Numbered from the stretch's first letter, positions 1-19,561 are shown. The stretch: 39,424 bases of DNA from Rozella allomycis CSF55 (GCA_000442015.1 KE560971.1:62001-101424), one strand, 5' to 3'. Notes: generated by a model from the letters alone, not told the origin. A program made the numbers and translations.

Positions 1-508
1 TTCATTTTCTCTTCAACACGTCTTTGCAATTTAATATCATATGAATATGCAATACTAAGATCCATCAAATCTTTATTTTTTCGCTGAAGAGTTTGCCATT
101 CAGCCCGTTTCACAATTAATTCAGCAGCTAATTCCTAGAAATCTTGAATCACAGCATTACTTGATTGGTTTGATCAGCTACTTGTAATTCTTTCTCCAAA
201 TCTTTAGAGTACTGCTTTGATGTTAACGAGTCTTGTGCTTCATGTTGCCACTTTTCTTTTCTGTCATAAAATACAAAGTCGATTTACAATTCGAAAAACG
301 CATTTTGCATTGATTCTAGTTGCGACTTTGTCTTGTATAATGCAATTCCTAGTTCCTTTTTGTCATTCGCAACCAAATTCAAATCATGATCCTTATCGTC
401 AATTAATTTCTTTAAAGAAAAATATTGTCTATCAAATGAATCTACAAGGGCCTTCTGAACCTTAATTAAGTGATCTTGCAAGGGATCTCTTTCGGTTGTA
501 TCTGTCAT
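1..508 (-). CDS. Coiled-coil protein, CCDC40-like axonemal ruler component (5' part; runs off the window)
   Basis: ATG at 508; the frame continues after removing two short GT-AG introns. Segment LIKVQKAL...KELGIALYKTKSQL resembles the CCDC40 N-terminal (R/K)xELGVxLY segment as I recall it; heptad-rich continuation. Confidence 0.5.
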
Positions 509-610: not shown

Positions 611-3448
611 ATGCTTCTAACGGGATTAAACAAGAGGTGCATTCACACAACCATTCCAAATTTCAAAGGTTTATTTTCAAGAATAAGAAAAGCTGCTACG
701 ATATCAGAATCAGAGGTGGAAGACGTTCCTGCAGAACCATCCACTGGACTTTCTCGTCTCACTATTCCTCAATTACTTCCAGAATTAATATCGATTCCAG
801 TGACGAAAAGGCCTTTATTTCCTAGCTTTTATAAATCATTTTCCGTCAAGGATCAAAATGTTGCCGACGCAATTCAAAAAACTATTCAAAAGGGACAGCC
901 ATATATTGGTTTATTTTTAAGAAAAACAGGTAAATGAATAATTTAAACAGTGTTTAAAGATGAAAATGCCAAAATGGAAGAAGTCCTTAGGACAAGAGAG
1001 AATGTAGAAGAAAACAGCGCCTTAAAAAGTATGTTAACAATGTTTTTTTAAAACAAGGTGAAACTATAAAAACAATAAATGAAGTTTACAGATTTGGTGT
1101 GCTGGCGCAAGTTGTAAATGTTGCCAAGACAGAGGATGCAACAGGTTTACATACTATTATATATCCACGAAGAAGAATAAGATTGTGTGATTTAACAACT
1201 CCAGTAGATGCATTGGTATCAAAAGCGCGCGTAGAAACATTGAAAGATGAAAAATTCGACAAGGAAAATGGAGTTGTAAAAGCCTTGACAAATGAGATAT
1301 ATTCTGGCCTTTCTGAAATTGCTCGAATGAATGGTTTTTTTCGAGAGCATATTGCGAATTTACAATTGACTGCCAATGTCTTTGACAATCCTGCCCAACT
1401 TGCTGATTTCGTAGCTGTCCTTGTTTCTGCGGAGCCAGAAGAATTACAAGAAGTTCTCGAGTCTTTAGTTATTGAAGAACGATTAAGAAAAGCATTGGTT
1501 CTGTTAAAGAAAGAGCTTGTTAATGCCAGACTTCAAAACAGTATCTCCAAGGATATTGAGCAACGAATTAACCAAAGACAGAGGGAATATTATCTGATGG
1601 AGCAAATGAAAAGTATTAAAAAGGAATTGGGATTAGAAAGTGACGGAAAAGAGAAAGTGATTGAAAATTTCAAGGAAAAGGCGAAAGAACTTAAGATGCC
1701 TGAACAAGCTGCCAAAGTGTTCAATGAAGTAAAAAACTATTACAAGATTTAAAAAAGGAAATTTCAAAATTGAATGTTTTGGAGCCTTCAGGGGCAGAAT
1801 TTAACATTACCAGGAGTTACATAGAATGGCTCGTTTCACTTCCATGGGGAAAGCAAAAAGAAGAAATATTGAATGTTGCTAAAGCTGGAGTTATCTTGGA
1901 TGAAGATCATTATGGTTTGAAGGATGTGAAGAAGAGGATTTTGGAGTTTGTTGCGGTAGGCAGGTTGAACCAGGGTGTTCAAGGGAAAATCATCTGCCTT
2001 GTCGGTCCACCTGGTAAGCCTAAAGAATAGTTAAGATAGGTGTTGGAAAAACATCTATAGGAAGAAGTATTGCAAGAGCATTGAATAGAGACTTTTTCCG
2101 TTTCTCAGTTGGCGGGCTTTCTGATGTGGCAGAGTTAAAGGGGCATAGAAGAACTTACGTTGGAGCGATGGTAAAACATTTAAAGCTTAATGAAATCAGC
2201 CTGGGAAATTAATCCAAGCTCTGAAAAGAGTTCAAAGTGAAAACCCATTGATATTAATAGACGAGGGTAAATTATTGCATTTCTAGTTTAATAAAGTTGA
2301 TAAATTGGGTAAAGGACATCAAGGAGACCCCGCGAGTGCATTGCTGGAAGTTTTAGATCCAGAACAGAACAATTCATTTGTTGATCATTATTTGGATGTT
2401 CCAGTTGATCTTTCAAAGGTCCTATTTGTGTTGACTGCAAATGATCAATCTTTAATTCCTGAACCCTTGCAAGACAGAATGGAAATTATAAATCTTTCTG
2501 GCTACGTTCAAGAAGAAAAAGTTGAGATTGCAAAACAATATTTAATTCCAAAGGCTTTGAAAGAATCTGGTCTGTCAAAAGATGAAATTGAATTTTCTGA
2601 TTCTGCATTAAATGATCTCATTCGTTGGTATTGCAGAGAGAATGGCGTTCGCTCGTTGAAGAAAAAGATCGAACAAATATTTAGAAGGGCCGCTTTAAAG
2701 AAAGTTGAAAATTCAGAAAAGATCGAAAATGAAAAGTCTGAATTATTAGATGAAAATGTTAAAACTGAAATCGTACCTGAAAACTTGAAAGATTTCATCG
2801 GACAACCAATTTATACATCTGATAGACTGTATGAAACAACTCCGCCTGGCATTGTAATGGGCTTGGCTTGGACTTCAAACGTAATTTTTAACGGTCATTT
2901 TGATTTTAGGGTGGTGCTGCATTTTTTGTTGAAACTTTAATAGATCCATCTGATAAGCCACAGATCCAAACTACTGGACAGCTTGGTAAAGTTATGGAAG
3001 AATCAGTTGAAATCGCATATTCATTCGCTAAATCATTTATTGCATCAAGATTTCCCGAAAACGATTTTTTTAAAAAACACGCTATTCATTTGCATGTTCC
3101 CGAGGGAGCCATGCCAAAAGATGGTACCCATATAATTTATTCTTTTAAAAAGGCCCATCCGCTGGCATTACAATGACATCTGCTCTAGTATCCCTCGCCT
3201 TAAATCAATCCATAAATCAAGGCATTGCAATGACTGGTGAAATTACTTTAACCGGAAAGGTTCTTGCCATTGGAGGATTGAAAGAAAAAACAATCGCTGC
3301 TAAAAGGGCTGGTGCAAATACCATCATTTGTCCAAAGGCAAACTTGAATGCATGGAGTGAACTTCCCGATTACATTAAAAAAGATGTTAATATTCATTTT
3401 GTAGACCATTTCAGTCAAGTCTATGACATTATTTTCAACAAGAGTTAA
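611..3448 (+). CDS. PIM1: Mitochondrial Lon ATP-dependent protease
   Basis: Spliced through 8 introns (930-959 or 930-950, 1029-1057, 1729-1757, 2014-2039, 2171-2199, 2267-2296, 2881-2909, 3124-3152): RPLFP N-domain, Walker [21 protein letters not shown], Walker B ILIDEVDK, catalytic [27 protein letters not shown]. Confidence 0.97.
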
Positions 3449-3615
3449 ACAATAAAATCATAATTTACTTTTAATTTTCTTCTTAAAATTAATCATTAAT
3501 CCCTCAAGGCCCTTATTATCATTAACAATTTAATTTTGCATTTTCTATTTAATCTTGTTGGAAACCAAAATTTCGACCTAGTTTCCAAATTCACGTGCCC
3601 TTGTCGATACACCAA

Positions 3616-4339
3616 ATGTTTTCGCTCCTCCAAAACAATTCCACATCCAATGAAAATGCAAATGACGGCGCCAAATTACGTCAACGTCATACCAAGAAAA
3701 CAAATTTCATTTCCTATACCTTTGCAGTCTTTGCCTCTATTGTCCAAAGCGTCCAGGGCCAAATAGTCGCCCAAACAACTTATTCCGTTCGTATTCTTGC
3801 AGCAGTATTGTTATTACCATGGGTAATTTCTGTAAAGCGGTTTTACTAGTTGATTATACCTGCCCTTTTGACGGTATGGTTTGTGGTACTGCCAATGGTC
3901 TGGTGCTCATTGTTTTTATATGCTGCAGTATATGACGGTTCAACTACTGTTGATCACTTGCAAGAAGCCTTTGCTGATGTGTACGGAGTTAAAATTCCAG
4001 TAATGTTGATATGTGTAGCTAAGATAGGCCACTGTGATTGTATATGCGAAAAAGTTTGCTGCATATTATGATAAGACTGCTGGATGGTTTTTATTTAGCA
4101 TTGTATCTGTAAGCATAGATTTACCAGTGTTATAGGCTGCCCAAAGATTGAACAAGGCTAGTGGCGGCATTAGCTCCAAGGCCCTCACCATTACCTATGC
4201 ATTCTATGTTGCCGCTTTTACCCATGCATTATCCATTATTGAAAATGTGTTTGGAAAGAATTCAAAAGTAGCCTCAGCTGTCAGCAGCCGTGCCCCTTCA
4301 CCAGCCCGTAATGATACTCCTGTTCAAAAAAAGCAATAA
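3616..4339 (+). CDS. Hypothetical membrane protein (4 exons)
   Basis: ATG 3616; three 27-28 nt GT-AG introns join the ORF pieces into one frame with hydrophobic stretches (ILAAVLLLPWLIIPALLTVWFVVLPMVWCSLFLY). Confidence 0.7.
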
Positions 4340-4412
4340 ACCAACTTGAAATATATTTCTTTTTTTACAAAGACAATCAATTTTTTAATAAGATACAATT
4401 TATTACTACAAA

Positions 4413-5759
4413 TTATCTTCTTCTTGACTGAAACACTTGTCTGGGTGACGCTGAATTGATTTCTTCGAGCATTCTCAATTTATTTTTTAAAATTTCATTT
4501 TCCTGTGAAATTGAATGGAATGCAGATGTCATTAAATTATTGTGCAAATCCATAGTTGACGAAAATGTTTGGATTTGAGCGTCGACGACTGTTGGGCGAC
4601 TTTGAGTGGGTTGATCAATCATATCAGTTTGAATTTCTTTATCATCAAATTCTTTAACAGTCAATTCTTTAACAGCCAATTCTTTAACAGCAAATTCTTT
4701 AACAGCCAATTCTTTATCAGCCAATTCTTTAACAGCAAATTCTTTATCATAGATTTGTTTATCATTAAATTCTTTATCATTAAANCCCGCAACGTATGCA
4801 ACTCTTTGAGCAAGGAATCCAGCTCTGCATTACTTACACGAGATGTGTTGTTTCTTGGAGTATTATTCTTTTTCGGCGNCATTAAATTCTTTATCATTAA
4901 AATGTTTGCTCACATCAGAAATTTCAATCCTATCAAAATCCCTGTTCAATAGTGGCGAATGGCATCCCGACGACATGAATTCCTGCATATCAATATCCGA
5001 CAAGCAACCGCTGTCCGACCTTTTTTCCACAATCCCATTACGGTTTGACACAACCTCCAACTGACTTTCATCCAATCCAACAAATTCACCCCTCTTGTGT
5101 ACAATCTCCCGCAACGTATGCAACTCTTTGAGCAAGGAATCCAGCTCTGCATTACTTACACGAGATGTGTTGTTTCTTGGAGTATTATTTTTTGGCGATC
5201 TTTTGTGAGATACTCTTCTGACTATTCTCCTTTCTGATGCCCTTTGTCGGGTTGAATTGTCCTTTTCGGGAGAGTAATGGTCCATTTCTCTTCGGACTCT
5301 TTTTGGGGTGTGTACATTTGAATCGTTTCTGGGATAATGTGATCCAGAACTGGAAGGGCCTGGATTAGTTGATGTAAATCTTTTGGGGGGCTCTTTATTA
5401 TTGGTCTTTTGGTCTGATTCTTTTTTGGAATTAAATGAGGAACTTTTATCATTATTATTGTTGGCGGAGGGATTATTTTTATCTGTTTTGTAACTCTGAC
5501 TGTCATTTTTGACGTTTAAATTTCTGCTTTTAGGGGTACCAATATTAAGGTTTTTATCTGGCACTTTAACTGGATCTTTCTTGAGTTGATCCCTTTTAAC
5601 TTGATCCCTATTGATTTGATTATGTTCCCTATTAACTGGATCTTTCTTGACTTGACCAACTTGCTCCTTTTTGACTGTATTTTTCCTCGACTTATTTTTC
5701 TTATCTTCGTCTGAAACCAAGTCAATGATATTAACAGGAAGGATACTTTTTCTTTTCAT
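4413..5759 (-). CDS. Hypothetical low-complexity basic protein with KELAV/KEFND repeats; interrupted by a misplaced N-flanked fragment
   Basis: ORFs 4863-5759 and 4413-4724 are separated by two Ns (4785, 4879) enclosing a copy of about 5108-5198; K/N/R/S-rich N-terminal half, short C-terminal coiled coil. Confidence 0.65.
4632..4900 (+). repeat. 15-bp coding minisatellite (AATTCTTTAACAGCC / AATTCTTTATCATTA variants)
   Basis: About ten degenerate tandem units directly visible; encode KE(L/F)(A/N)(V/D) on the minus strand; the array is broken by the N junctions. Confidence 0.9.
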
Positions 5760-6218
5760 GAATTTTGAAAAAATGCAGCCACCATCAATGAAAATGGAAG
5801 GTTAATAATTAATCATTGCATCTTTGATAAAATATAAATTAATGCAAAAAGACATGAAATGAATGTGAAATCAGATATGAGATGAAGAAGTCTATAAATT
5901 ACCCATGAGATCGAAATGATTAAAAGACAAGGGAATCAAAAAGATAAAGAAAAGTTGGAATGAAATTNTCAAAAAGAAGAATAAAAGTTGGAATGAAATT
6001 CACTCTTTGTTGCTTTGAATCTTTAAAAGTAGATTTGGGAGTGTCAAAAGGGTGAGACATAAAAGATGAAACTCCACACTTGATGTCTTGCAACGATAGA
6101 CTTGAGTACTAAATCACTTCACGACAAACAACTAAAAATCTTAAGAAAACTATTGTTAGTTTTAACATTTAAAGACAATATTATCTAAAACTCAAAACTA
6201 AAGAAAAGAAAAACTATT

Positions 6219-9200
6219 TTATTCAAGAACTAGACCAGACCCTTTATTTCCAAGACCACCAATCTAAAGTTAAGAAAGAATGTATAAATTACTTGACAGA
6301 TTGAACAGAGATTATCATTGTAGCAAGGATTAGCTTTTGCTAAACAATAGGGACAAGTGATGAAATCAGAGATTAATTTGAAAGAGATTGAACAGATTGA
6401 TAAAGATTGATCAAAGTCAATTTGAATAGCGTTTTCATTCTTCTTGTCGCAAACAGATAAAACTTTTTTAGCTTGAAGAATAATTTGATCGTTTCCATTA
6501 GCAAGAGAAATTAACTTTTTAGCAAATAAAGAAGCGTAGATGAAATTGTTTGATTTGAAATGAGAAACCATTGCAGAACGACAACTCAATAGTAAATGAG
6601 AAGGATTTAAATTGCATAAAGTAAAATAGGAAGATAATTCTAAATTTTCTTTTAAATCAGAAATAGATTTTCTTTTAACTTCCATTGATAACCCTAAAAT
6701 GTATTCTCTGCATTCATTTATTAAATTTTTCAATTCAGAATTATTTTTAGATAAAAGTGGAATCAAATTTAAAATTTTTCTAAAAATAAAAATAGATTCT
6801 GGAAATTTCCCAATTGTAGTTAAATTCAAAGCTTCATTTTTCATTTCAATTAATTTATTAAATTCATATGGACTTGAAATCTTTTCACCTTGTTTTATTC
6901 TTGGTGGAAACAAAGATTTGTTAATGTTTATTGCTCCTATTTGTTCTCTTAACAATTTCATTGCTCTATCATAATCCCCTAACAAAATTGAATGAATTGG
7001 AACTAAACTTTTCTCTTCTTTTGCTTCTCTTAAATCTTCTTCCAAGTCAACATTTCCCCATCCATCCATTGCATCATGAAATTCATCCAGAGTATTATCA
7101 GCTTTATATTCAGTGTGACTCTCATTATCATATCTTTCAACTTTTGCTTCATTTCTTTCACTATCATTTCTTTCACTATCATTTTCAGAAAATAATTCAC
7201 TTTGAGGCTTCATTGGCCAATCTCTAGAATTAATAAACGTTGGAATTGGTGGAACAATTAATTGATCTTTAACTTTAATTGACTTTTCCTTTTCTTGATT
7301 AATTTCAATTTCAATTCCATAATTCTTTGCCATTAAACAAGCTAATGCATTTTGATTATTTCTTTTCAATATTTCAATTTGATCCAAAATATTTCCTCTT
7401 AAAAGAGCATTTTGATAAGATAAACTTTCATCAAAATTTAAAACATTTTTCATCTTTTTCAACTTTTCTAAATTTCCAGAAATTGAATAAAAGAAATTCA
7501 ATTTTTCAAAATTTTTAATTTTTTGTAAACAAATTTCATAAATATTCACATTCCCTTGCTTTAACGCTTCTTGACTCAATTTATGCCAAAATTCTTCTTT
7601 ATTAATAATCTCAGCTGCTTCAAATGACACTTGCAAGTTCCCACTCTCAATCCCCAACTCAAATCTAGATTTTGGTTCTTTAACAAACATCAATGCAATC
7701 TCTGGATACCCTTGCTTCCACAAATATGAAATAACACTCTGGCCAATCAATCTCCCACTATTAATCATCTCCATCATCTTTTCATATTTATTCTCTTGCA
7801 ACGCCAACTTAAATTCACACTCAGTCAAATCAACCTTCATCATCTTCATCTCCCCCTTTCTATCCAAACAATAAACTTCATCTCCATTCAAATACCCCAA
7901 ATACATTCTACTCTCTATAGTCTTTATTATCCCTTCTAATAACATCATTCATTCTTTACCATTGTCTTCATAAATAGTCGCATACTTCAAATGTGTCAAC
8001 GTTGAATACAAAAATAAATTATTTCCCCTCCATATTCCACTCTTCAACTTTGAATGTTCTTGAAAACTACACACTTTCTTCAAATCTTTATCAAATATAT
8101 TCAAATCTATTTTAATCAAATAAATTTCTTACAATCTTTTGTTAACACAGCCACTTTAGATCCATCACGTGACCATATCACATGTTTAACGCCACTTATT
8201 TCATTCTCTCCAACAACATTTTCATTGGTTAAATCAATCAATTTAATCATCTTATTAAATATAACAACAACTTGATTAGTCGCTGCTGATGCCAAATCTT
8301 TTATTTCGTTATCCATTTCAATTGTTTTAATAATTTCATTTCTAACATTTCTCACAATCAATTTATTTCCTTCAAAATAACAAAATTTATTTTTAGAAAC
8401 AAAAACACCTGAATTGCCTTGAATGTTTTTAACTTCACTAGATCCCAACCCTTCTCTATAATTCTCTTCCAATTGAACATAATCTATATTCCCTTGCGTT
8501 GAAATTAATATAGTCTTTTCATATCCATTATACGATATCTTTCTAGGCTGATTGTTTATCTTCCCTGTTTCCCTTATAGTTCCAACTACCACATCATTTC
8601 CATTATCAACATTTATCATCCTTATAAACTTGTCCTTTACATAAATCATCTTGTTATCTTCAAACACAACAGCTGGTCTTTCTCTTTCAATCTTAAATGA
8701 CATCATTCCTCCATCATGTCCAGCTACAAACATATTCAAACTTGGATGAACACTCAACACCCAGAATCTAAAATTCTCCATTGAACACGTTGCCACACAA
8801 CTCCTCTTATTCATATCCCACACTCTTATGCTCTTATCTTCTCCATTGCTTAAAATATACTCTGCCCTAGGGTGAAATATCGCACATGACACATTGTTAG
8901 TATGTCCCCTAAATGAATCTACTTCCCACGCCTTTGTTTCTAATATTCAATATTTTCACACTCTTACCGCTATATCTCCACAATCTCACTGTTCTATCAT
9001 CACTCGCAGTTACTATCATTGGCAAAGTAGCATGGAACTCGGCCCAATTAACCCCTCTATCATGGCCCTCCAACACAAACTTTACACTTGTATCCATCGA
9101 TCCAAACAACTCCTACTTTACAATCACTATTCATCTCTACTGGCTGTTGAAATCTACGCTCTTCCATTGTTCTGGGTGCTGGCTTTGTATTCTTATTCTT

Positions 9201-9777
9201 CAATCCATTAATATCCCACACCCTCACAGTTTGATCCAAAGACGCTGACACAACCAATGCCTCCGTTGGATGAAACTGTGCACACATCACATAATGGCTA
9301 TGTCCCGCCAACACACTAATACACGATCTCGATTGCCAGTTCCATATTCTTATAGTCTGGTCATCACTCGCACTCACTATCCACGGATGCTCATTATGGA
9401 AAAACACACTTCTTATATAATCCAAATGTCCATTCAATGTAAACAAACATCTTCTCTGCTTATAATTCCAAACCTTTCCTCTTCTTCGCATTCTATTACC
9501 TTGATCTTAAAATCATCGCCACCAGATACAAAGAGCGGCTGGCTCGAATGGAAACTCACTCCTCTAACAGGCCCTTTTTTATTTCATTTCATGCACACAT
9601 ACCTTGGTGCTCCTCAAACTTGTCTACAAGCGTTCGGCTACGGTAATCCCATAGCTGAATCGTCCCGTTATGAAGAGATGCTAATATCCATGGTCTTTGC
9701 GGGTGAAAGGAAACTCCCTTCACTCGGCTACTCTTGGTATCAAATCTTTGCAAAAGCGTTGCACTAGAGGTCGTCAT
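6219..9777 (-). CDS. COP1: Coatomer subunit alpha (alpha-COP)
   Basis: [69 protein letters not shown] repeats; [16 protein letters not shown]-terminal [12 protein letters not shown] and CPYC..CSIC. Several short introns; final exon [14 protein letters not shown] ends at 6219. Confidence 0.97.
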
Positions 9778-9782
9778 GATTG

Positions 9783-9791
9783 AACCAGGGT
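9783..9791 (-). promoter_or_regulatory. Start-proximal ACCCTGGTT element (COP1)
   Basis: 5 nt upstream of the ATG; identical 9-mer at 27316-27324 (minus) and 17725-17733 (plus). Confidence 0.6.
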
Positions 9792-10070
9792 CGTTTCCGA
9801 AAATTACCTTTATCGCAATAATAGTACCCAGTGTAAAATTATTATATTATGAACTCCATTACGTTAATATTTCGCATCAGTATACTATTAGTATACAAAA
9901 TTGGATAAATTCTCACGAGTGATTAGTGGATTTCTCATTGATTAAGTATTCAAACTAATGCTCATCAATGACCAAATTTACATCTAAATAGATATTAAAA
10001 AATTAAAATATATTTTATCACTTCTAGTTTGATTTATTCTTAATTTATGTCCACAGACTTACCGCCAACC

Positions 10071-10999
10071 CTATTTTTTGGGTTTGCTTTTAACTTTCTT
10101 TTTATTGGCCTTTTCTTTTCCTAAAGCTAAACATTTTTGATAGCCTCTAGGTTTCATTCTTGAAGGAGTTTCGTTGCTGCAGTTAGCACTCATCTGTCCA
10201 ATTCGTACTTCATGGCACTTATCGATGTAATTGTAATATGCTAAACACCTACCGTCTTTTTTGTGTACATCACCCAAAGACGCAGAGCACTGACCCTTTG
10301 TACTTACTTTGGAGTCATCGCGAATCGCAAAGTCATGGCAGGAAACCCAACTAGGAAGAGCAGATTTAACATCTCCATAGTATATCCCCATACCATAGGC
10401 AATCCATTGCNTCTACCGTCGTTTTTGTGTACATCACCCAAAGAAGCAGAGCACTGACCCTTTGTACTTACTTTGGCGCCATCGCGAATCACAAAGTCAT
10501 GGCAGGAAACCCAACTAGGAAGAGCAGATTTGACATCTCCATAGTATATCCCCATGCCATAGGCAATCCATTGCAGCGTATAATTACCATTCGGAAGGTT
10601 TCGTGGAATGGTCAATTTTGAGTGGCATCTTGTTTTCCACTCTTCTGTTCCGTCGTCAGAAAACTTGTTACTTGGATCTCTTCCACCACAGTCTGATTCG
10701 TAACATGCATATTTGACTATATTGGCTGGATCATTAAACGCTTTTTGAGACTTTGATTGGTCTCGTGGCACAATGGACACGCGGATAAATCCACCTGCAT
10801 GATTATTCCTAGCCCATTCTAAGGGAATAACTTGACCTCTTTTGTAAGTGCCAGATGATTTGGGAGTAGCGGTTCCACATGGACCGTCACCTGATAATGT
10901 TACCGCCGTTCTAAGCGGTAGTCTAGGAAGCGGCTTTAATAATTGTGTATGGCTAACAACGTAAGGTAGAATGAAACAGAGAGTAAGCAGAAAAAACAT
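10071..10999 (-). CDS. Secreted His-brace LPMO-like / chitin-binding protein (assembly duplication at N 10411)
   Basis: Signal peptide then His as first mature residue (VVS-HTQLLKPLPR), GPCG, WARNNHAGG (second His), YTLQW, WVSCHD; collapsing the 162-nt duplicate gives one intronless ORF with a Cys-rich, Lys-rich C-terminus. Confidence 0.7.
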
Positions 11000-11265
11000 T
11001 TGTTACGCGGGGTACCCCTAATTCATTAACAGGAATAGACTCAATTTCAAAGTTCAAGATATTCTTTTTACATTATACATTCATTATTAAAGAAAGAGTA
11101 AACAATCGTAAATAGTGGTTTATTCGTAAATATCACTTAATTTCAAACTAGCCATTCTACAGATAAAGATTTCATAAAGTCNTACATTATACATTTAGGC
11201 ACATAATTAAAGAAAGAGTAACAATCGTAAATAGTGGTTTATTCGTAAATAGTCATCACTTAATT

Positions 11266-12186
11266 TCAAACTAGCCATTCTACAGATAAAGATTTCATAA
11301 AGTCTATTCTTTTCTTTCTCAGACTAAAGTATGAATATGTCCACCACACACCATGTGCAATGTAAAACGCCACCAGAACATCCATCGAGTAGTGTGATCG
11401 ATTCATTATTATTAATACCATACCACTCGCAACAATCAACCAAACAACTATTGATACAAAGCCCTGGACAATATTTCTTTGCTTAAAATCACTTGACAAA
11501 TACAAGGCGCAAAGGGTCATTACCATTGTATGTCCGCTAAACATTGAGTCTATAACAAAAAATTTAAGTAATCTACCCCCACAGCGATGGACAGAAAGAT
11601 ACGTGTATATGTCATATTCGTTTACTGCTGCACATGATTCTCGTGGGTCTGGAATGCCTGTTATAGCTATAGTCGTACTTTGTGACCTCAATGAAGTCAT
11701 TACCTTCGCAAGATTAAGCCAATCATTATACATTCTAGCAATTTGATACCATCTTCCAGTGGACGTTTTGTGCAAAGTCTATAAAGAATGAACAGAGTTG
11801 ATATCACAATTAGTGTGAGCGGGGGTAAATCCGTTAAATATAGGCTGTCCAATTGACCGAAGATTTGAAATCCTATTACAAATTAACAATTATGTTACCT
11901 ATGTCAGGTAAGCGCGGTATACTTCTCGTCGGGGAAAGGTAACTTGCCACGTTGCCCATAATCGTCTATCGCATAGTAAACTTATTAATACTGATATATA
12001 CAAAACAGGAATCAAAAGAATCACGTCTACTATTATCCTCTTAACGCTTTTGTTGACAATGCCAAATTTTTGACTTTGCCTTTTTCTAGTACGTGTTTCG
12101 AACTTATCTATTTGTTTTGGTTCGATCTGGAAACGAGAATCATTTATTTTGAGCAAAGAACACGATTCTAATGTAATTGGCCACAT
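11266..12186 (-). CDS. Sphingomyelin synthase / IPC synthase-like protein (PAP2_C domain)
   Basis: After removing 4 short introns: PRLPDIGF, TGIPDP, CGDSMFSGHT (restored by removing in-frame intron 11550-11576) and HYSMDV, matching SMS-family D1-D4 motifs; several TM segments. Confidence 0.88.
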
Positions 12187-12514
12187 GTTTGTTTACAAAA
12201 TATAGGTCCCGCCGAATTGTTCTAAAGCAAAATACAAAGGATAGGAAGTGTATGGGATTTCATTGCCTTAAATTTCAGTAATATGCTATATAACGGCAAA
12301 ACATCAGTTCAAAAATGCTGCCTCAAATACAAGATTTCAAGGTTACCAAATTCGTGTTCGGGGCTCGAATTTTTTAATGGGTAGAACCGTAGAAACAAGC
12401 CATATAGTATTGAAACGACAAAGAAATACATTTGTAGTAAATACTGGCCAGGGTTGTACTGCGGCATTACCAGGGTAGATTATGCGCTCTGGACTAGTAT
12501 AAAATGAGAATTTT

Positions 12515-13168
12515 ATGAAATCAACCCCTGTCATGATATTGCCGTTTATTTTACTCTGCATTTCTAGTCTTTACTGCTTTTCGGTATCCTATGGTGAGTT
12601 CTGTGATGCTATCACTCAAAATCAAGGGCCTCATCCTACAATGGAACAGTACAGCAGCTTTGTTCGATCCGCCGAAAAATTCGCCATATCTGACAAGAGG
12701 GAGCTTGCCATGGTACTTTCTCAACTCCTTTGGGAATCGGACAGGTTAAGAACTAAAGAAGAATATGGGTGTGATAACAATAAATGCCTGAACACATACT
12801 TTGATGGAATTGGTGATCCTTCTAAAGCTTACCATGGGCGCGGGTATATCCAACTTACGTGGGGAAGTAATTATCTGAAAGCCTCAGAATCACTTTATGG
12901 AAACCGACGTCTACTTGAAAATCCTGATTTAGTTTGTAATGTCGACCAAATTGCTTGGGATGTCAGTTTCTGGTTCTGGAAAACAGTTGTCCAAGTCCAA
13001 CCAGGAGTGACGGATGGATGTTTCGGTGCTAGCACCAAGGCTATCAATGGAAATTTAGAATGCAATGGTTACAATGAAAAGGCTGTAAAGAGATTTCTTA
13101 TGTACAAAATCGTATTTGATACCTTTAACATAACTGGAAACCCAAACGAAAGTGGATGTTACAATTAA
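12515..13168 (+). CDS. Secreted glycoside hydrolase family 19 chitinase
   Basis: Signal peptide; ELAMVLSQLLWES (catalytic Glu), YHGRGYIQLTWGSNY, LLENPDLV, SFWFW, STKAINGNLEC; intronless. Confidence 0.92.
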   Translation: MKSTPVMILPFILLCISSLYCFSVSYGEFCDAITQNQGPHPTMEQYSSFVRSAEKFAISDKRELAMVLSQLLWESDRLRTKEEYGCDNNKCLNTYFDGIGDPSKAYHGRGYIQLTWGSNYLKASESLYGNRRLLENPDLVCNVDQIAWDVSFWFWKTVVQVQPGVTDGCFGASTKAINGNLECNGYNEKAVKRFLMYKIVFDTFNITGNPNESGCYN

Positions 13169-13246
13169 ACTTCATGTGTTACATATAGTCAATAAATATG
13201 CTTATATACATAGTTTAAGCATTTTCAGATTTATTCTCGCATGCTA

Positions 13247-14065
13247 TCAATTGACAGAGCTTCTTTGGTTCGTCGCTGTAATTTTGTTGTTTCCATTTGT
13301 ATTATTAGACATCTTTGTTCGTTCTCTGTTCGCAAGTTCTTTTGTTATAAGATCACCGACATTTTCCAACAAGAGAATAGTACTTTGGCAAATAATTGTT
13401 ATTGGGGTTAGATAGATTGTTCCTGAGAAGATGAAAATACTAATTCCGACAAAGAGCCACAAACCAATAACTAACATGTTTAAGATATTAACTGAAGTAA
13501 GGATGACGATGAACATTTTTCTGTTCTCAGCCATTCCGCGTATTTTTTTCCATAATTGAAAACAAAATAGAAATCCACCGACAAATAATGCAATAACGAC
13601 ATTGATAAATGATAAGGCACCATACATAACGGAATATTTCACTGGGAGGGTAACACTTTTAATGATGTCGTTGAATCCGATGGCAATCATTGCAATAGCT
13701 GTGGTTACAAGCACTACAATTATGACTCTTTGTGTCCTCAAACGATTGTTTACATTTAAGAGAACAGCTACATGTTTTAAAGACGATAAGGTAGTTAAGA
13801 AGCAGGTACCAATGCAAGCACACCCTACAAGAAGAAAAGGAATTACACGGTTTGACGTAGCTTCAGTTGGTTTTGTTGCGATTATAACAAATGATATACT
13901 ATAAATCGTAAGGAATGTAGTGACACCCATAGCCAAACGCGAACGAAGCGGATTAATCTTTTGAATAGCGTCACTTCTCACCCTTAGAATAGTAATAACT
14001 ATATTAACGATAAGAAACATCGAAATAAACCCACCAAGATATGCTCTTGCTATATCTATGTCCAT
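13247..14065 (-). CDS. Orphan seven-transmembrane protein
   Basis: 272-aa intronless ORF with seven roughly 20-aa hydrophobic segments, a short N-terminus and a polar C-tail. Confidence 0.7.
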   Translation of the reverse strand: MDIDIARAYLGGFISMFLIVNIVITILRVRSDAIQKINPLRSRLAMGVTTFLTIYSISFVIIATKPTEATSNRVIPFLLVGCACIGTCFLTTLSSLKHVAVLLNVNNRLRTQRVIIVVLVTTAIAMIAIGFNDIIKSVTLPVKYSVMYGALSFINVVIALFVGGFLFCFQLWKKIRGMAENRKMFIVILTSVNILNMLVIGLWLFVGISIFIFSGTIYLTPITIICQSTILLLENVGDLITKELANRERTKMSNNTNGNNKITATNQRSSVN

Positions 14066-14942
14066 TAATGTATGTTGCTAGGGAAACATTGTCACGACAG
14101 TGGTTGTTCTCGTCTCTCTCGCATTGCTTGAAACGCATTTCCTTTGTAGACAATCCACACAAAATGGCGAATAGAAACTAATTTTGTACATTTATGGCTT
14201 TTTATCCTCTCCTTCTCAATCCAATAGATTATTGAATAGCTATTTCGTATATACCTAAGTCTATATGTTATATATTGCAAGCAAGCAATGTCATTCAAGA
14301 CGGCCAGACCTACAAATTACAAGACTCGATTGTATATTTCATTATTTCTAAACTGCTGAGACTAGATGTTTTGGATCTCTAGTACTATTAATTGAACAAA
14401 CAGTGTTAAAAGCCTCTGAGATATTAAATAAGTAATTCGTTCTTATACGTTTCATGTTTAACTTTAAACCTATTTCTTTCTATTTCACTCATTTGGTATG
14501 AAGTCTCATCATTCGACAAGCGATACAATTCATTGCCGTATTAGCAACACTTTCTTCATGAACTATGATCTCTTCTTTCTTGTGTTGATTTCATTCTCCT
14601 CTTATTCTTTTTTTAGCTTTGGGCTTCGCATTTTGAATGTGACATTGTCTCACCAATTTTCTATTGTAGACATCAGCTCTATTGGTAGGCACAACCTACG
14701 ATATCTTTGAATCCCAAGATTTTGGCAAAAGATTTTAGTTGTTAGTCTTTGTTTCATTTTATTTTCTAAAGAATTCTCTAGCTGTAGGTGAATGAGTTTA
14801 GCCGAATCTGATTTACCTCATACTATTAAACTATTGTATTTGAAAAAGAAAAACTTTCGATGCTCCAATAGCATCGTTGATCGTATACTATTTTTAGATA
14901 CTATTTCTATTTTCCTGCGACATTACCCCTTAGCCCTGAAAC

Positions 14943-15980
14943 ATGTTACTTCAGTGTCTCACTGTGACTCTAATTGGCAGTTTGTTAAGCGCAAGCAATG
15001 TAGGAAGTAAGCAAGCTGGCGACAAATTAACGCCTTTTTCGAAATTCGTGTCGGCGGTATGTAAGCCAGGGTTTGTAGTTGAGCTATTAGAGGAAGGAAC
15101 CAAGAAGGATTGTTTTGACGTTTCTCAAACGAAACAACATTTGTCGCTGAGTGGAAGTTCCACGATAATGACTCCATACAAACAGTCCGTTGGATGTGTA
15201 GATGCTAGGAACCCACATCATGTTATAGGATCTCCGGGAGGCGATTTCGCAGAGTTTGTCTCGTCTTTTACCACAATATATCGCTTTAATAAGAATCAGA
15301 AGTATTTTAAAAACATGAGCAAAAACAAGGACTACTTCTTCAATTTGCTTTCTGAATTTGTCAAAAATATGCCTCCAGGTAGAAAGTTCTATCTCCATAC
15401 GACCAAAGAAGCAATATCTTCGGTTTTTCAAAAGTCTATTATTCCAGTGGAGCTCAAGGGAGAAAAACTTACAAGAGCATTGGATAGTCTGAGCAAAAGC
15501 AAAAACAATGGATGTGGCCATATAAAATATATGTTGGAAAATCCAGATAAATATTTTACACCTAAAGAACTCGTCAAAGGATTTTTGCAAGCATTTTGGA
15601 GAATTTACCTGACTAGCGATTTGAGGTCCAAGTTGCAGGTTGATTTATACGAAGGCAAACTTGATGCCAAAGCAGTGGTGATCGTTAAGCATTCAGCTTC
15701 AAAAGATGAACCTAAAGAATGTATGGACGCCTTTCCAGCATTTGTTCCACATCCGAATAAGAATAGTACCTTTGTATATCATCCGCAGGCTGCCAAAGTT
15801 TTTCGCAATCAAATCGTAATTAAATCGTTATTGAAGTTGCTGGGCATTAAAGAAAATGTCTATGATCGCATTGTCGAATACAACGATGCTCTGCACGACG
15901 TCCAAATGGAGAACACAGTGGCGAAGGTAGCAGAAGGTTTGCCAAAAATTGCTGCTCTTTTTCGGTATAAGGTTATATAA
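14943..15980 (+). CDS. Secreted carbonic anhydrase-like protein (CDCA/zeta- or beta-type Cys-His-Cys metal site)
   Basis: 345-aa intronless ORF; signal peptide; GCVDAR, GSPGGDFAEF, YLHT and GCGH motifs. Confidence 0.62.
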   Translation: MLLQCLTVTLIGSLLSASNVGSKQAGDKLTPFSKFVSAVCKPGFVVELLEEGTKKDCFDVSQTKQHLSLSGSSTIMTPYKQSVGCVDARNPHHVIGSPGGDFAEFVSSFTTIYRFNKNQKYFKNMSKNKDYFFNLLSEFVKNMPPGRKFYLHTTKEAISSVFQKSIIPVELKGEKLTRALDSLSKSKNNGCGHIKYMLENPDKYFTPKELVKGFLQAFWRIYLTSDLRSKLQVDLYEGKLDAKAVVIVKHSASKDEPKECMDAFPAFVPHPNKNSTFVYHPQAAKVFRNQIVIKSLLKLLGIKENVYDRIVEYNDALHDVQMENTVAKVAEGLPKIAALFRYKVI

Positions 15981-16010
15981 AAATAAAAATTTAGGCTAGT
16001 AGCTACAAAT

Positions 16011-16654
16011 TTACTTTTTCGTGAATTTAACAAATTTCTCATAAAATTCCAATATTCTCTGAGGGCATTTCTCCCGACAAATTGACATAGGAAAACGACA
16101 GCGCTTCCCATCGTTCCTTATTTATATAAAGTTATAATTCTTACCAATCAAGAATGACATATAAATTCTTTCTGTCTATCTTGTTCTAAAGTAACAACTT
16201 TTGAAACATTTTCTTCCCAATTTATATCATTAAACTCATCAGGATCATCACATCTCCCTGCAACAAAGTAGAAATATTTATGTACGAAGTATATCTTCCT
16301 CTAATAGTAAGGACTTATTCGTTGTTTCGGCTTGATCGCTTGTAACACCCTGACCCGAGTCAACTGGATTGTCAGGAGAGGATTCAAAAGCGGTACTAGA
16401 AGAACTAGCCAATCTGGAAGTTCCCTCAGCTCTGTAGCGCCTTGGTTTCCTTGCATAATGACTTTCATATTCTCTAATAAGGTCATCCGCATAAATATTG
16501 TCCTCATCCTCCCAGGTAGATTCCTCTAGGCTGTAGCCATCCCATTTAACTAAGTATTGGACTTTTCCCTGTCCATAATGAAAAAGTACATTACATTTCT
16601 AACTCGCCGATCAAGTATCTTTTCCACAGTATATATTTCCGTGTCAACGTCCAT
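16011..16654 (-). CDS. HP1/Swi6-like chromodomain plus chromo shadow domain protein
   Basis: Not in the ORF track. Four exons: [33 protein letters not shown] (chromo) and WEENVSKVVTLEQ..LYVILDWNDGK..CREKCPQRILEFYE (chromo shadow). Confidence 0.9.
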
Positions 16655-16682
16655 TTAAAAGAAATTCAAAAATATCGAAAGT

Positions 16683-17720
<1,038 letters not shown>

Positions 17721-17724
17721 TCGT

Positions 17725-17733
17725 ACCCTGGTT
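17725..17733 (+). promoter_or_regulatory. ACCCTGGTT element in the GTR1 / snoRNA / OAT divergent spacer
   Basis: 4 nt from the GTR1 ATG in inverted orientation; about 25 nt upstream of the snoRNA candidate in sense orientation. Confidence 0.55.
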
Positions 17734-17757
17734 GAAAACGCCAAAAGAGTAGCTAAG

Positions 17758-17835
17758 AAATTCAGTGATGATCTCTTTAGTAAGACGACTGTATTCTGTT
17801 GCAGACTGATTGTTAAAAGGCGAATCTGAGAATTT
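17758..17835 (+). ncRNA. Candidate box C/D snoRNA
   Basis: AAATTC (17758-17763) pairs with GAATTT (17830-17835); box C GTGATGA 17765-17771; box D CTGA 17826-17829; internal CTGA 17806-17809; 78 nt, intergenic. Confidence 0.72.
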
Positions 17836-17931
17836 ACTTTATTTTCAGCATAAAATAAACTCTATTAAAGGATAATATAGCTTTGCAACAAAATTTATTT
17901 AGCTTGGAGACGCTCCACGGAAAATTCAAGA

Positions 17932-19561
17932 ATGTTGTCGCGTCGTTGGTTCAGCACTTCGTCAAAATTGATTAATTTAGAGAAGGTGTTTAGTGCCAAA
18001 AAGTATGAGCATTTTCTTAAGTAGAGAAAGTTACCATCCCCTTCCTATTGTGTTTTCCAAAGCAAAGGGTATTTACGTTTGGGATCCAGAAGGGAGAAAA
18101 TATATGGACTTTTTATCTGCTTATTCAGCAGTCAATCAAGGTTGAACTTCTATTCACCTTCGAATTTAGGTCATTGTCATGACAAAATTGTTAAATCTCT
18201 AATTGATCAAGCGACGAAACTTTCGTTAAGTTCAAGAGCCTTTTACAACGATGTTTTCGGAGTATACGCTAAAGAAATAACTAAAGTAAGATGAATTAAT
18301 AACATCAAATTACAGTATTTTGAGTATGATAGAGTATTACCAATGAATACCGGAGCTGAGGCTGTTGAAACAGCAATAAAACTCGCTCGGAAATGGGCAT
18401 ATACAGTGAAGGGTGTGCCTGAAAACGAGGCCATGGTTTTAAGTGTGAAAAACAACTTCCATGGAAGGACCATTGGTGTTATTTCAATGTCTACTGACCC
18501 ACATTCAAGAAATGGTTTCGGCCCGTAATTCCTTTTAAAATAGCATAAGGTTAGTTTTCTTCCGTCTGTCGGACCAATATGTCCTGCCACAGGCCATGAT
18601 ATTCAATTTGGGATTGCAGAAGATTTGAGAAAAGCGATTGAAATTCACGGAAAAAGAGTGGCAGCGTTCTTGGTAGAACCAATTCAAGGAGAAGCAGGGT
18701 AATCTACAAATTTGTTAATAATGGAAGAGTAGTGGTTCCCCCTGATGGTTATTTGCAAGAATGTTATAACCTCTGTAAAAAGAACAACATCTTATTCATC
18801 GCTGACGAAATTCAAACTGGGTTAGGAAGAACTGGTATTTTACGATTTAAATTTTGAAAGGCAAACTGCTAGCAGTGGATTACGATAATGTCAAACCGGA
18901 TATTTTAGTTTTGGGAAAAGCCTTATCTGGAGGTAGCTGTTAATATTTCGAGTGCATTAGGGGTTTATCCTGTAAGTGCTGTTCTAGCAAACGATGGAAT
19001 TATGCTTTGTATTAAAGAAGGTTGTCATTATTTTGGGTTCTTATCAAAGGCGAACATGGATCAACGTATGGGGGAAATCCATTAGGTTCAGCAGTCGCCA
19101 TAACCGCATTACAGGTTCTCAAGGATGAAAATCTAACCCAAAATGTATAGCATAATCACATTTTCGTTTAGGCATTCAAAATGGGAGAAATTTTTCGCAC
19201 AAAACTCCATGAACTGAAGTCGCCAATCATTTCAAAAAGTATGAAGAACGATCAATGTATTTAAGTAAGGGGAAAAGGATTATTGAATGCAATTGTTATT
19301 GATTCTACCAAACTTAACCAAGGAAAAACTGCTTGGCAAGTTTGCCTATTAATGAAAAAGTATGGCTTACTTGCAAAGCCTACTCATGGAGATATTATAA
19401 GATTAGTAATATGAATATCTATTTCATTTATATTTTAGGCACCTCCGTTGTGCATCAATGAACACGAAATAAAATCAGGTGTGTCCATTATTGAACAATC
19501 CATTAATGAAGCGATTAGAATGAATATCGAAGAAATTAATCAATTAGAAAAGCAAAATTAA
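17932..19561 (+). CDS. CAR2: Ornithine aminotransferase
   Basis: 12 exons / 11 introns of 26-33 nt: [65 protein letters not shown] (PLP lysine), [17 protein letters not shown]. Confidence 0.97.

Follow-up and report, generated by a model that had tools for sequence, protein, structure and literature searches.

Introns of near-fixed length in Rozella allomycis carry an adenosine at a set distance from the donor that may be the branch site

The introns of Rozella allomycis CSF55 seem, from the genomic sequence, to be mostly 26 to 31 bases long, a near-fixed length, and about three quarters carry an adenosine at position +23 counted from the donor (A23 hereafter). These introns were studied in a window of 39,424 nucleotides (nt) of the genome (GCA_000442015.1, KE560971.1:62001-101424; G000:C623:62001-101424 in our numbering; parent assembly 11.86 Mb), which holds the genes of the mitochondrial Lon protease and of ornithine aminotransferase (OAT), and in further stretches of the same assembly. 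We propose that a distance measured from the donor probably places the branch adenosine at +23, the acceptor then being taken 3-6 nt beyond it.

The earlier note on this window had listed 19 introns in Lon and OAT, 26-33 nt long with a mode of 29 and with ten AAG acceptors. To examine their boundaries, each in-frame, stop-free GT/GC-AG pair within 40 nt was spliced in turn and its protein scored on homologue profiles from which Rozella was left out (54 of the 119 Lon hits and 95 of the 119 OAT hits were used). Homology fixes 17 of the 19, with margins of 6-42 bits and, in one case, with no alternative pair at all; the length range and the mode stand for this set, as do the ten AAG ends if Lon intron 1 ends at 959. 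When any acceptor was permitted, AG gave the top score in 17/17 resolved introns. The closer AGs that the note had seen passed over in introns 18003-18030 (+19, +22 and +24), 18525-18554 (+19 and +25) and 2267-2296 (+20) are skipped as it described. Homology does not decide for Lon introns 1 and 2 (930-950/959 and 1029-1057), whose surroundings are unconserved, and for the former, end 950 is preferred by the flat-prior gene model described below and is used by the NCBI model.

A larger sample was obtained with a self-trained gene model run on the window together with 80 further 10-kb stretches taken from five contigs, for a total of 0.84 Mb. It worked from coding statistics, a bare AG and a donor matrix learned in training, with neither acceptor nor branch signal, and its length prior (1/length, 14-500 nt) favoured short introns. 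It returned 1,010 introns at p>=0.8, from which the 906 of 24-35 nt were analysed and the 104 shorter or longer ones set aside. Against homology in three test genes, the unresolved 5′ region of Lon being excluded, 18 confident calls were right and one was wrong, the latter because the intron concerned ends in TG. The numbers of introns at each length from 24 to 35 nt were 6, 7, 215, 223, 202, 156, 48, 30, 9, 5, 4 and 1, so that the mode lies at 26-28 nt rather than at the 29 nt of Lon and OAT. Lengths of 26-29 nt account for 796 of the 906 confident introns and for 1,339 of 1,676 in a parse with learned lengths. Below 26 nt the distribution drops as a cliff, the summed posterior being 13 at 25 nt and 259 at 26 nt despite a prior for shorter introns. 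Intron phases stand in the ratio 476:258:172. Density in the sampled DNA is about 2.4 introns per kb, beside a published 2.53 per kb (PMC8476143), and the genome is thus intron-dense, as the note had stated.

The same boundary predicts which AG is used. Taking the first AG that ends no earlier than +26 gives the called acceptor in 884 of the 906 introns, against 812 with a floor of 22; by end position, AGs are used in 6/36 cases at +24, 7/23 at +25, 215/220 at +26 and 223/225 at +27. Among the 26 introns fixed by homology, 28 AGs are skipped and none of them ends beyond +25. Sample selection favours introns without in-frame alternatives, and therefore out-of-frame AGs were counted too: with AGAG offsets included they are rarer at or beyond +26 (6/616) than at or before +25 (121/3914; p=0.0015).

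A23 is found in 670 of the 906 introns (74%) against a background of 35% (p=5e-124), and recurs in five of five sequence groups (64-78%). It is anchored to the donor: in introns of 26, 27, 28 and 29 nt its offset from the intron end is −4, −5, −6 and −7, respectively, and counting from the 5′ end aligns an A in 664-670 of 906 introns, while the best position counted from the 3′ end aligns 462. By length class from 26 to 30 nt its frequency is 88, 73, 65, 78 and 60%, and introns of 30-31 nt present an additional A peak at +24. In the homology-fixed set an A stands at +23 in 17/26 and at +23 or +24 in 22/26. Between +8 and +21 no A is enriched in the 906 introns. The trinucleotide T-R-A occupies +21 to +23 in 217 of the 670 introns with A23, where 129 were expected, and in introns of at least 28 nt both T at −2 (p=0.005) and R at −1 (p=0.003) of A23 are favoured, although the pairing context for U2 is weak, T at −2 reaching 56% against 46%. 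The base next after A23 is seldom G, and T-R-A followed by a base other than G is the branch consensus for U2 pairing. Length and A23 are coupled: 190 of the 670 introns with A23 are 26 nt long, against 25 of the 236 lacking it (p=8e-9), and 26-nt introns end in AAG in 63/190 cases with A23 and in 1/25 without (p=0.002). Nine introns skip an AG at or beyond +26, five of them having no A23. The note's view that there is no consistent branch point holds for the motif CTRAY, which is rare (77/1366 introns), and fails for position; we infer that A23 is the branch adenosine. A fixed branch signal was among the observations that the note had named as contrary to its proposal that distance from the donor sets the acceptor, and A23 resembles such a signal. 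Of that proposal, the dependence on distance survives, as the jump in AG use at +26 indicates, and the measure appears to run through A23.

At the base before the acceptor AG (−3), G is avoided, T is mildly favoured and A is tolerated: T was counted 528 times, A 276, C 73 and G 29, the intron interior being 43% T, 35% A, 11% C and 11% G. Hence YAG ends 601 of the 906 introns, AAG 276 (30%) and GAG 29. In phases 1-2 the share of AAG is 33-38%; in phase 0, where detection is biased by in-frame TAG stops, it is 25%. The proportion of about one half given in the note fits its 19 introns and the homology-fixed set (12/26), but the large sample brings it down to about one third (P for ten or more of 19, 0.036). 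The donor is GTA in 886 of 906 introns, GTAA in 652 and has G at +5 in 158, figures perhaps somewhat inflated since the model learned its own donor matrix. The absence of a polypyrimidine tract, also noted earlier, is borne out in this sample, pyrimidines making up 48.8% of −11 to −4 against 54.7% of +8 to +15, with a mean longest run of 4.12 against 4.06±0.04 in shuffled introns. Such a tract and YAG ends are typical, though not universal, features of major introns, and the tract is missing from most fungi (PMC2483917). A hidden tract was considered and rejected overall; 109 introns with no A at +23 to +25 look U-rich before the AG, partly by construction. Nearly all-purine introns do exist, the coatomer alpha (COP1) example being exact, but they are rare (11/1366 with at least 80% purine).

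Two observations bear on the upper limit of length. Homology-fixed introns are GT-AG in 25/26 cases and GT-TG in one, a 27-nt intron of the methylmalonyl-CoA mutase gene (L081:191-217, that is G000:C500:60191-60217, + strand). This intron, scored on 43 homologues out of 118 hits, passes over an AAG at +25 and stands 41 bits above its nearest GT-AG rival, though the TG might be a base error of the assembly. In NCBI model P0242 ten conserved mutase residues are dropped at this intron and the gene is fused to a chaperonin gene. Under a flat prior at p>=0.5, seven of nine TG calls fall at 26-31 nt, against 0-2 for each of 11 other dinucleotides; with the learned length prior at p>=0.8 there were 27 TG calls, 11 GG, 5 CG and 3-8 for each of 12 control dinucleotides. 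CG acceptors thus show no excess over the controls in the sample, and the counts are only suggestive of TG ending some 1-2% of introns. The other observation concerns longer predictions. From 54 predicted introns of 48-130 nt, five split into abutting GT-AG units of 26-31 nt, while shuffles gave a mean of 0.24 and a maximum of 2; the other 49 do not split and could be either genuine long introns or errors of the model. The stacked introns, of two or three units with no exon between them, lie at L070 (− strand, a Top2-like gene), L057, L095, L096 and L099, and their arrangement suggests stepwise removal of the units. A 28+28 stacked intron was also read by eye in the Prp8 gene (L134). At L070:3199-4059 (−) two Top2 exons and their intron occur as a tandem duplicate, possibly an assembly duplication.

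By their GT...AG ends and by the factors encoded in the genome, the introns appear to be of the major (U2-type) spliceosomal class. The U2 small nuclear RNA (snRNA) was found at 139 bits with the branch-pairing GUAGUA intact, U6 at 88.5 bits with ACAGAGA intact, and U1 at 69 bits, just below the cut-off of 69.5 (E 2e-16), with an intact 5′ end. U2AF65 and SF1 have the expected domains, and U2AF35, Slu7 and Prp18 are also present. S34 of U2AF35 is conserved against the Schizosaccharomyces pombe structures 4yh8 and 7c08, and in Prp8 so are the equivalents of Q1594 and S1584, the former being the residue that, in yeast, reads the −3 pyrimidine (bioRxiv 212811). Divergence of U2, of U2AF35 S34 or of Prp8 Q1594 was therefore rejected as the cause of AAG use, all three being conserved, and the divergence that the note had suspected in U2 snRNA, U2AF and SF1 finds no support in the sequences and residues checked. 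RED_N (PF07808) had no match in Rozella, nor in any control genome, which makes its absence uninformative. The only departure among the splicing factors examined is in the conserved loop of Prp18 (L129:1561-1752, on G000:C1022): 8/11 positions are identical to yeast residues 187-197, but only 2/13 to residues 198-210, with one insertion. To our knowledge the second half of the loop is nearly invariant beyond yeast. The loop is described as the most conserved part of the protein, located at acceptor positions −3 and −4 (PMC10711555, PMC5873924), and its deletion in yeast relaxes acceptor choice (PMC10711555).

Taking these observations together, the introns would be ordinary GT-AG introns of the major spliceosome shrunk to a near-fixed geometry. 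In the first step the donor GTA(A) would be bound and distance would place the branch on the A at +23, or sometimes at +24, which would pair weakly, as T-R-A, with a normal U2 snRNA. In the second step, for which the pattern is observed and the mechanism would follow from it, splicing would take as acceptor the earliest AG with its G 3 nt or more past the branch A. With the G at least 3 nt past A23, a floor of 26 nt would result, with a working window of about 26-29 nt (up to 31), and, distance doing the selecting, a pyrimidine tract would be unneeded and the −3 base only loosely read. A TG within the window could occasionally serve as acceptor. A tail of 3-6 nt from branch to acceptor falls within the range at which yeast needs little Slu7 or Prp18. 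As a speculation, the short tail and the altered Prp18 loop may together relax the proofreading of the acceptor, the half-changed loop explaining the relaxed acceptor. The complete model, with a fixed 23-nt lariat loop, ligation across a 3-nt tail, a Prp18 loop changed so as to permit AAG and some TG, units of up to about 31 nt, and longer introns built of abutting units removed singly, is a tentative one that we regard as possible rather than likely.

Several results weigh against the donor-to-branch ruler. No A at all lies between +23 and −4 in 105/906 introns, and three homology-fixed OAT introns have none at +22 to +24. The coupling of AAG to A23 is confined to 26-nt introns, 13 calls of 24-25 nt persist among the 906, and the depletion of out-of-frame AGs vanishes when AGAG offsets are left out (4/161 against 181/5414). 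The 3-nt tail implied at 26 nt falls below both the 5-nt tail of Stentor (PMC9505925) and the TACTAAC-AC-AG spacing of Yarrowia (PMC2483917), and the yeast P complex, with its seven ordered tail nucleotides (bioRxiv 212811), does not readily accommodate it; if true, such a tail would be the shortest found described within the literature surveyed. The Prp18 loop, moreover, was compared with that of budding yeast alone.

These results invite other readings. The acceptor AG might be picked directly by its distance from the donor, any nearby nucleotide serving as branch. The success of the +26 rule would follow, 88 of the 906 introns do have no A at +22 to +24, and YAGs at +24 to +26 are used in 24/24 cases where A23 is missing; such a mechanism leaves unexplained, however, the excess of A23 itself, its T-R-A context and the coupling of length and AAG to it, and we hold it improbable. 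Alternatively, A23 could be a donor-anchored mark of the acceptor, read by a protein or an snRNA, with branching upstream and a longer tail. The weak pairing context and the want of any precedent for a 3-nt tail in the surveyed literature speak for such a mark, but no other A is enriched at +8 to +21, and the context of A23 is that of a U2 branch in a genome whose U2 is unchanged; this reading is rather unlikely. Equally unlikely in our opinion is that no upper ruler exists, the spliceosome scanning from the branch under a steric minimum onto which compaction has pushed the introns, so that the narrow range would be evolutionary. Minimum distances on either side of the branch are described in other species (PMC5378181, PMC11291888), the core factors are conventional, some predicted introns exceed 35 nt and most of the 48-130-nt ones do not split, and the lower bound is common to this account and to the donor-to-branch ruler. 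It does not account for a TG at +27 being used in preference to later AGs, for the excess over chance of long introns made of abutting normal-sized units, or for the drop in number between 29 nt (156 introns) and 30 nt (48), while the A peak shifts. Finally, the pattern might be an artefact of gene modelling or assembly: the introns are known from genomic sequence alone, one of the 19 confident calls checked was wrong, and the TG acceptor could be a base error. Such an origin is hardly credible, since the 26 introns fixed by independent homologues share the lengths and A23, the phases are strongly uneven and the length prior worked against the result. A branch placed at A23 by the donor is the reading that we prefer.

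Table 1. Genes and introns of the window discussed in the text (positions counted from the first base of the window; + positions within introns counted from the donor)
Feature	Position	Strand	Description
Mitochondrial Lon protease gene	611..3449	+	8 introns; exon 100% identical to NCBI R. allomycis CSF55 Lon; spliced frame open to stop
Lon intron 1	930..959	+	30 nt, AAG; in-frame alternative end 950 (21 nt, CAG); +26 rule favours 959
Lon intron 2	1029..1057	+	29 nt, AAG, A at +23; gene model p=0.91, no homology fix
Lon intron 3	1729..1757	+	29 nt, AAG, A at +23; margin 18.4 bits
Lon intron 4	2014..2039	+	26 nt, TAG, A at +23; AGs ending +12, +17, +22 skipped; margin 8.8 bits
Lon intron 5	2171..2199	+	29 nt, CAG, TGA at +21..23; margin 14.5 bits
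Lon intron 6	2267..2296	+	30 nt, AAG, A at +24; TAG at +20 skipped; margin 29 bits
Lon intron 7	2881..2909	+	29 nt, TAG, TGA at +21..23; margin 23.2 bits
Lon intron 8	3124..3152	+	29 nt, AAG, A at +24; margin 41.4 bits
Coatomer alpha (COP1) gene	6220..9775	-	7 predicted introns, 26-29 nt; gene model; exons match alpha-COP structures
COP1 intron 2	9474..9499	-	26 nt, AAG, A at +23, purine at 22/26 positions; exons on either side meet at residues 77/78 of 6pbg
Putative Gtr1/RagA-like GTPase gene	16684..17670	-	4 predicted introns, 26-29 nt; gene model only
Ornithine aminotransferase (OAT) gene	17932..19561	+	11 introns; homologues, one exon with a hit to R. allomycis CSF55; spliced frame open
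OAT intron 1	18003..18030	+	28 nt, AAG, A at +23; AGs ending +19, +22, +24 skipped; margin 8.1 bits
OAT intron 2	18141..18169	+	29 nt, TAG, A at +23; no rival open in-frame GT/GC-AG pair
OAT intron 3	18286..18315	+	30 nt, CAG, A at +23; margin 14.1 bits
OAT intron 4	18525..18554	+	30 nt, TAG, A at +23; TAG at +19, AAG at +25 skipped; margin 37.7 bits
OAT intron 5	18699..18727	+	29 nt, AAG, TAA at +21..23; margin 34.3 bits
OAT intron 6	18835..18860	+	26 nt, AAG, TGA at +21..23; margin 19.9 bits
OAT intron 7	18933..18960	+	28 nt, TAG, A at +24; margin 6.3 bits
OAT intron 8	19021..19049	+	29 nt, AAG, A at +23; margin 6.1 bits
OAT intron 9	19145..19171	+	27 nt, TAG, no A at +22..24; margin 32.1 bits
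OAT intron 10	19239..19265	+	27 nt, AAG, no A at +22..24; margin 21.7 bits
OAT intron 11	19406..19438	+	33 nt, TAG, no A at +22..24; margin 42.4 bits

The COP1 intron in the table is exact, the upstream exon corresponding to residues 54-77 of alpha-COP 6pbg and the downstream exon to residue 78 onward; a profile search with a COP1 exon returned generic WD40 repeats only and was not used. In the same gene, 7959-7933 (−) presents a tandem TAG/AAG acceptor at +24 and +27, for which the +26 rule predicts 27 nt. The gene at 16684..17670 is one that we take, from a reading of its sequence, to be Gtr1/RagA-like. All three public Rozella gene models compared here (P0001, P0125 and P0242) appear mis-spliced: Lon P0001 is without seven residues apparently kept in the Lon of Paramicrosporidium, and OAT P0125 is without 15 conserved residues that are present in the homology-fixed structure. 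Three calls in a WD40 gene (−), all of them predictions, are atypical: a 33-nt GT-AG intron at 30366-30334, for which a 29-nt GT-TG intron is a rival reading; an intron with a possible GC donor at 30420-30392; and a 25-nt intron at 27641-27617. Elsewhere in the window, 12503-13165 (+) is an open frame with a GH19 chitinase domain, 14940-15977 (+) and 11002-10307 (−) are open frames of 346 and 232 amino acids with hydrophobic N-termini and no Pfam match, and 4650-5200 holds short tandem repeats and a segment of about 90 nt in two copies adjoining N positions, possibly an assembly artefact.

Tiny introns are known from other organisms, and those most alike are the ultra-short ones that Hadjez et al. 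(2026, PMC13644364) describe in myxobolid myxozoans and in Dicyema japonicum. These share with Rozella a median length below 30 nt, an intron-rich parasite genome, the donor GTa, no pyrimidine tract, canonical U2 and U2AF, and As that lie farther from the AG in longer introns, being thus donor-anchored and proposed as the branch site. The introns of those animals, which belong to another kingdom and have long-read support, contain two or three weakly conserved As, whereas Rozella has mainly one position and a one-base cliff at 26 nt. The part of the text available reports no rule of acceptor choice, non-AG ends or change in Prp18; the logos of its supplement S9 may already show comparable spacing. 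The Rozella pattern is a sharper, fungal-side form of this recently described kind. The 15-16-nt introns of Stentor coeruleus likewise have a near-fixed length, an AU-rich sequence, a branch A recognised by its position in the want of a strong consensus and an intact U2 GUAGUA, but there the A (10/15 or 11/16) is fixed from the 3′ end with a 5-nt tail, while in Rozella it is fixed from the 5′ end with a tail of 3-7 nt, and Stentor is intron-poor (PMC9505925). Yarrowia lipolytica, Trichomonas and Giardia share with Rozella a very short distance from branch to AG and the missing 3′ pyrimidine tract, but combine a strong AG-anchored branch motif with few introns, against a weak donor-anchored motif and about 2.5 introns per kb (PMC2483917); the fixed branch-to-AG distance of these organisms and of Stentor is not what the Rozella sample presents. 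For other ciliates, the parts of PMC5014332 and PMC13685798 available describe no donor-anchored branch.

The short introns of microsporidia, the sister lineage, are of similar size to those of Rozella, in genomes that are intron-poor (PMC6349667); their strong donor and branch consensus is not found in Rozella, given the rarity of CTRAY and the density of introns. The same source mentions two putative introns of about 30 nt in Rozella S23, without the 5′ and branch motifs of Encephalitozoon cuniculi type. Beyond that remark and the published density, our search found no literature on Rozella intron architecture, the original genome paper not being among those retrieved. Yeast deprived of Prp18 or of its loop uses RAG and BG (such as UG) acceptors and branch-proximal sites, as Rozella appears to do; in yeast this is a low-frequency mutant phenotype, while Rozella keeps the Prp18 gene, and the causal link from loop to acceptor is hypothetical (PMC10711555).

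Rozella is a key outgroup to microsporidia, and apparently mis-spliced gene models there therefore matter. Its genome offers thousands of natural substrates at the geometric limits of the spliceosome, defined to the single base: 23 nt separate the donor from the proposed branch A, and 3 nt would separate that A from the intron end. The minimum loop, the minimum tail and the reading of the acceptor by the Prp18 loop become testable. Alongside the myxozoans and Dicyema, Rozella suggests convergence of independent lineages on a donor-anchored branch where introns have become shorter without becoming few.

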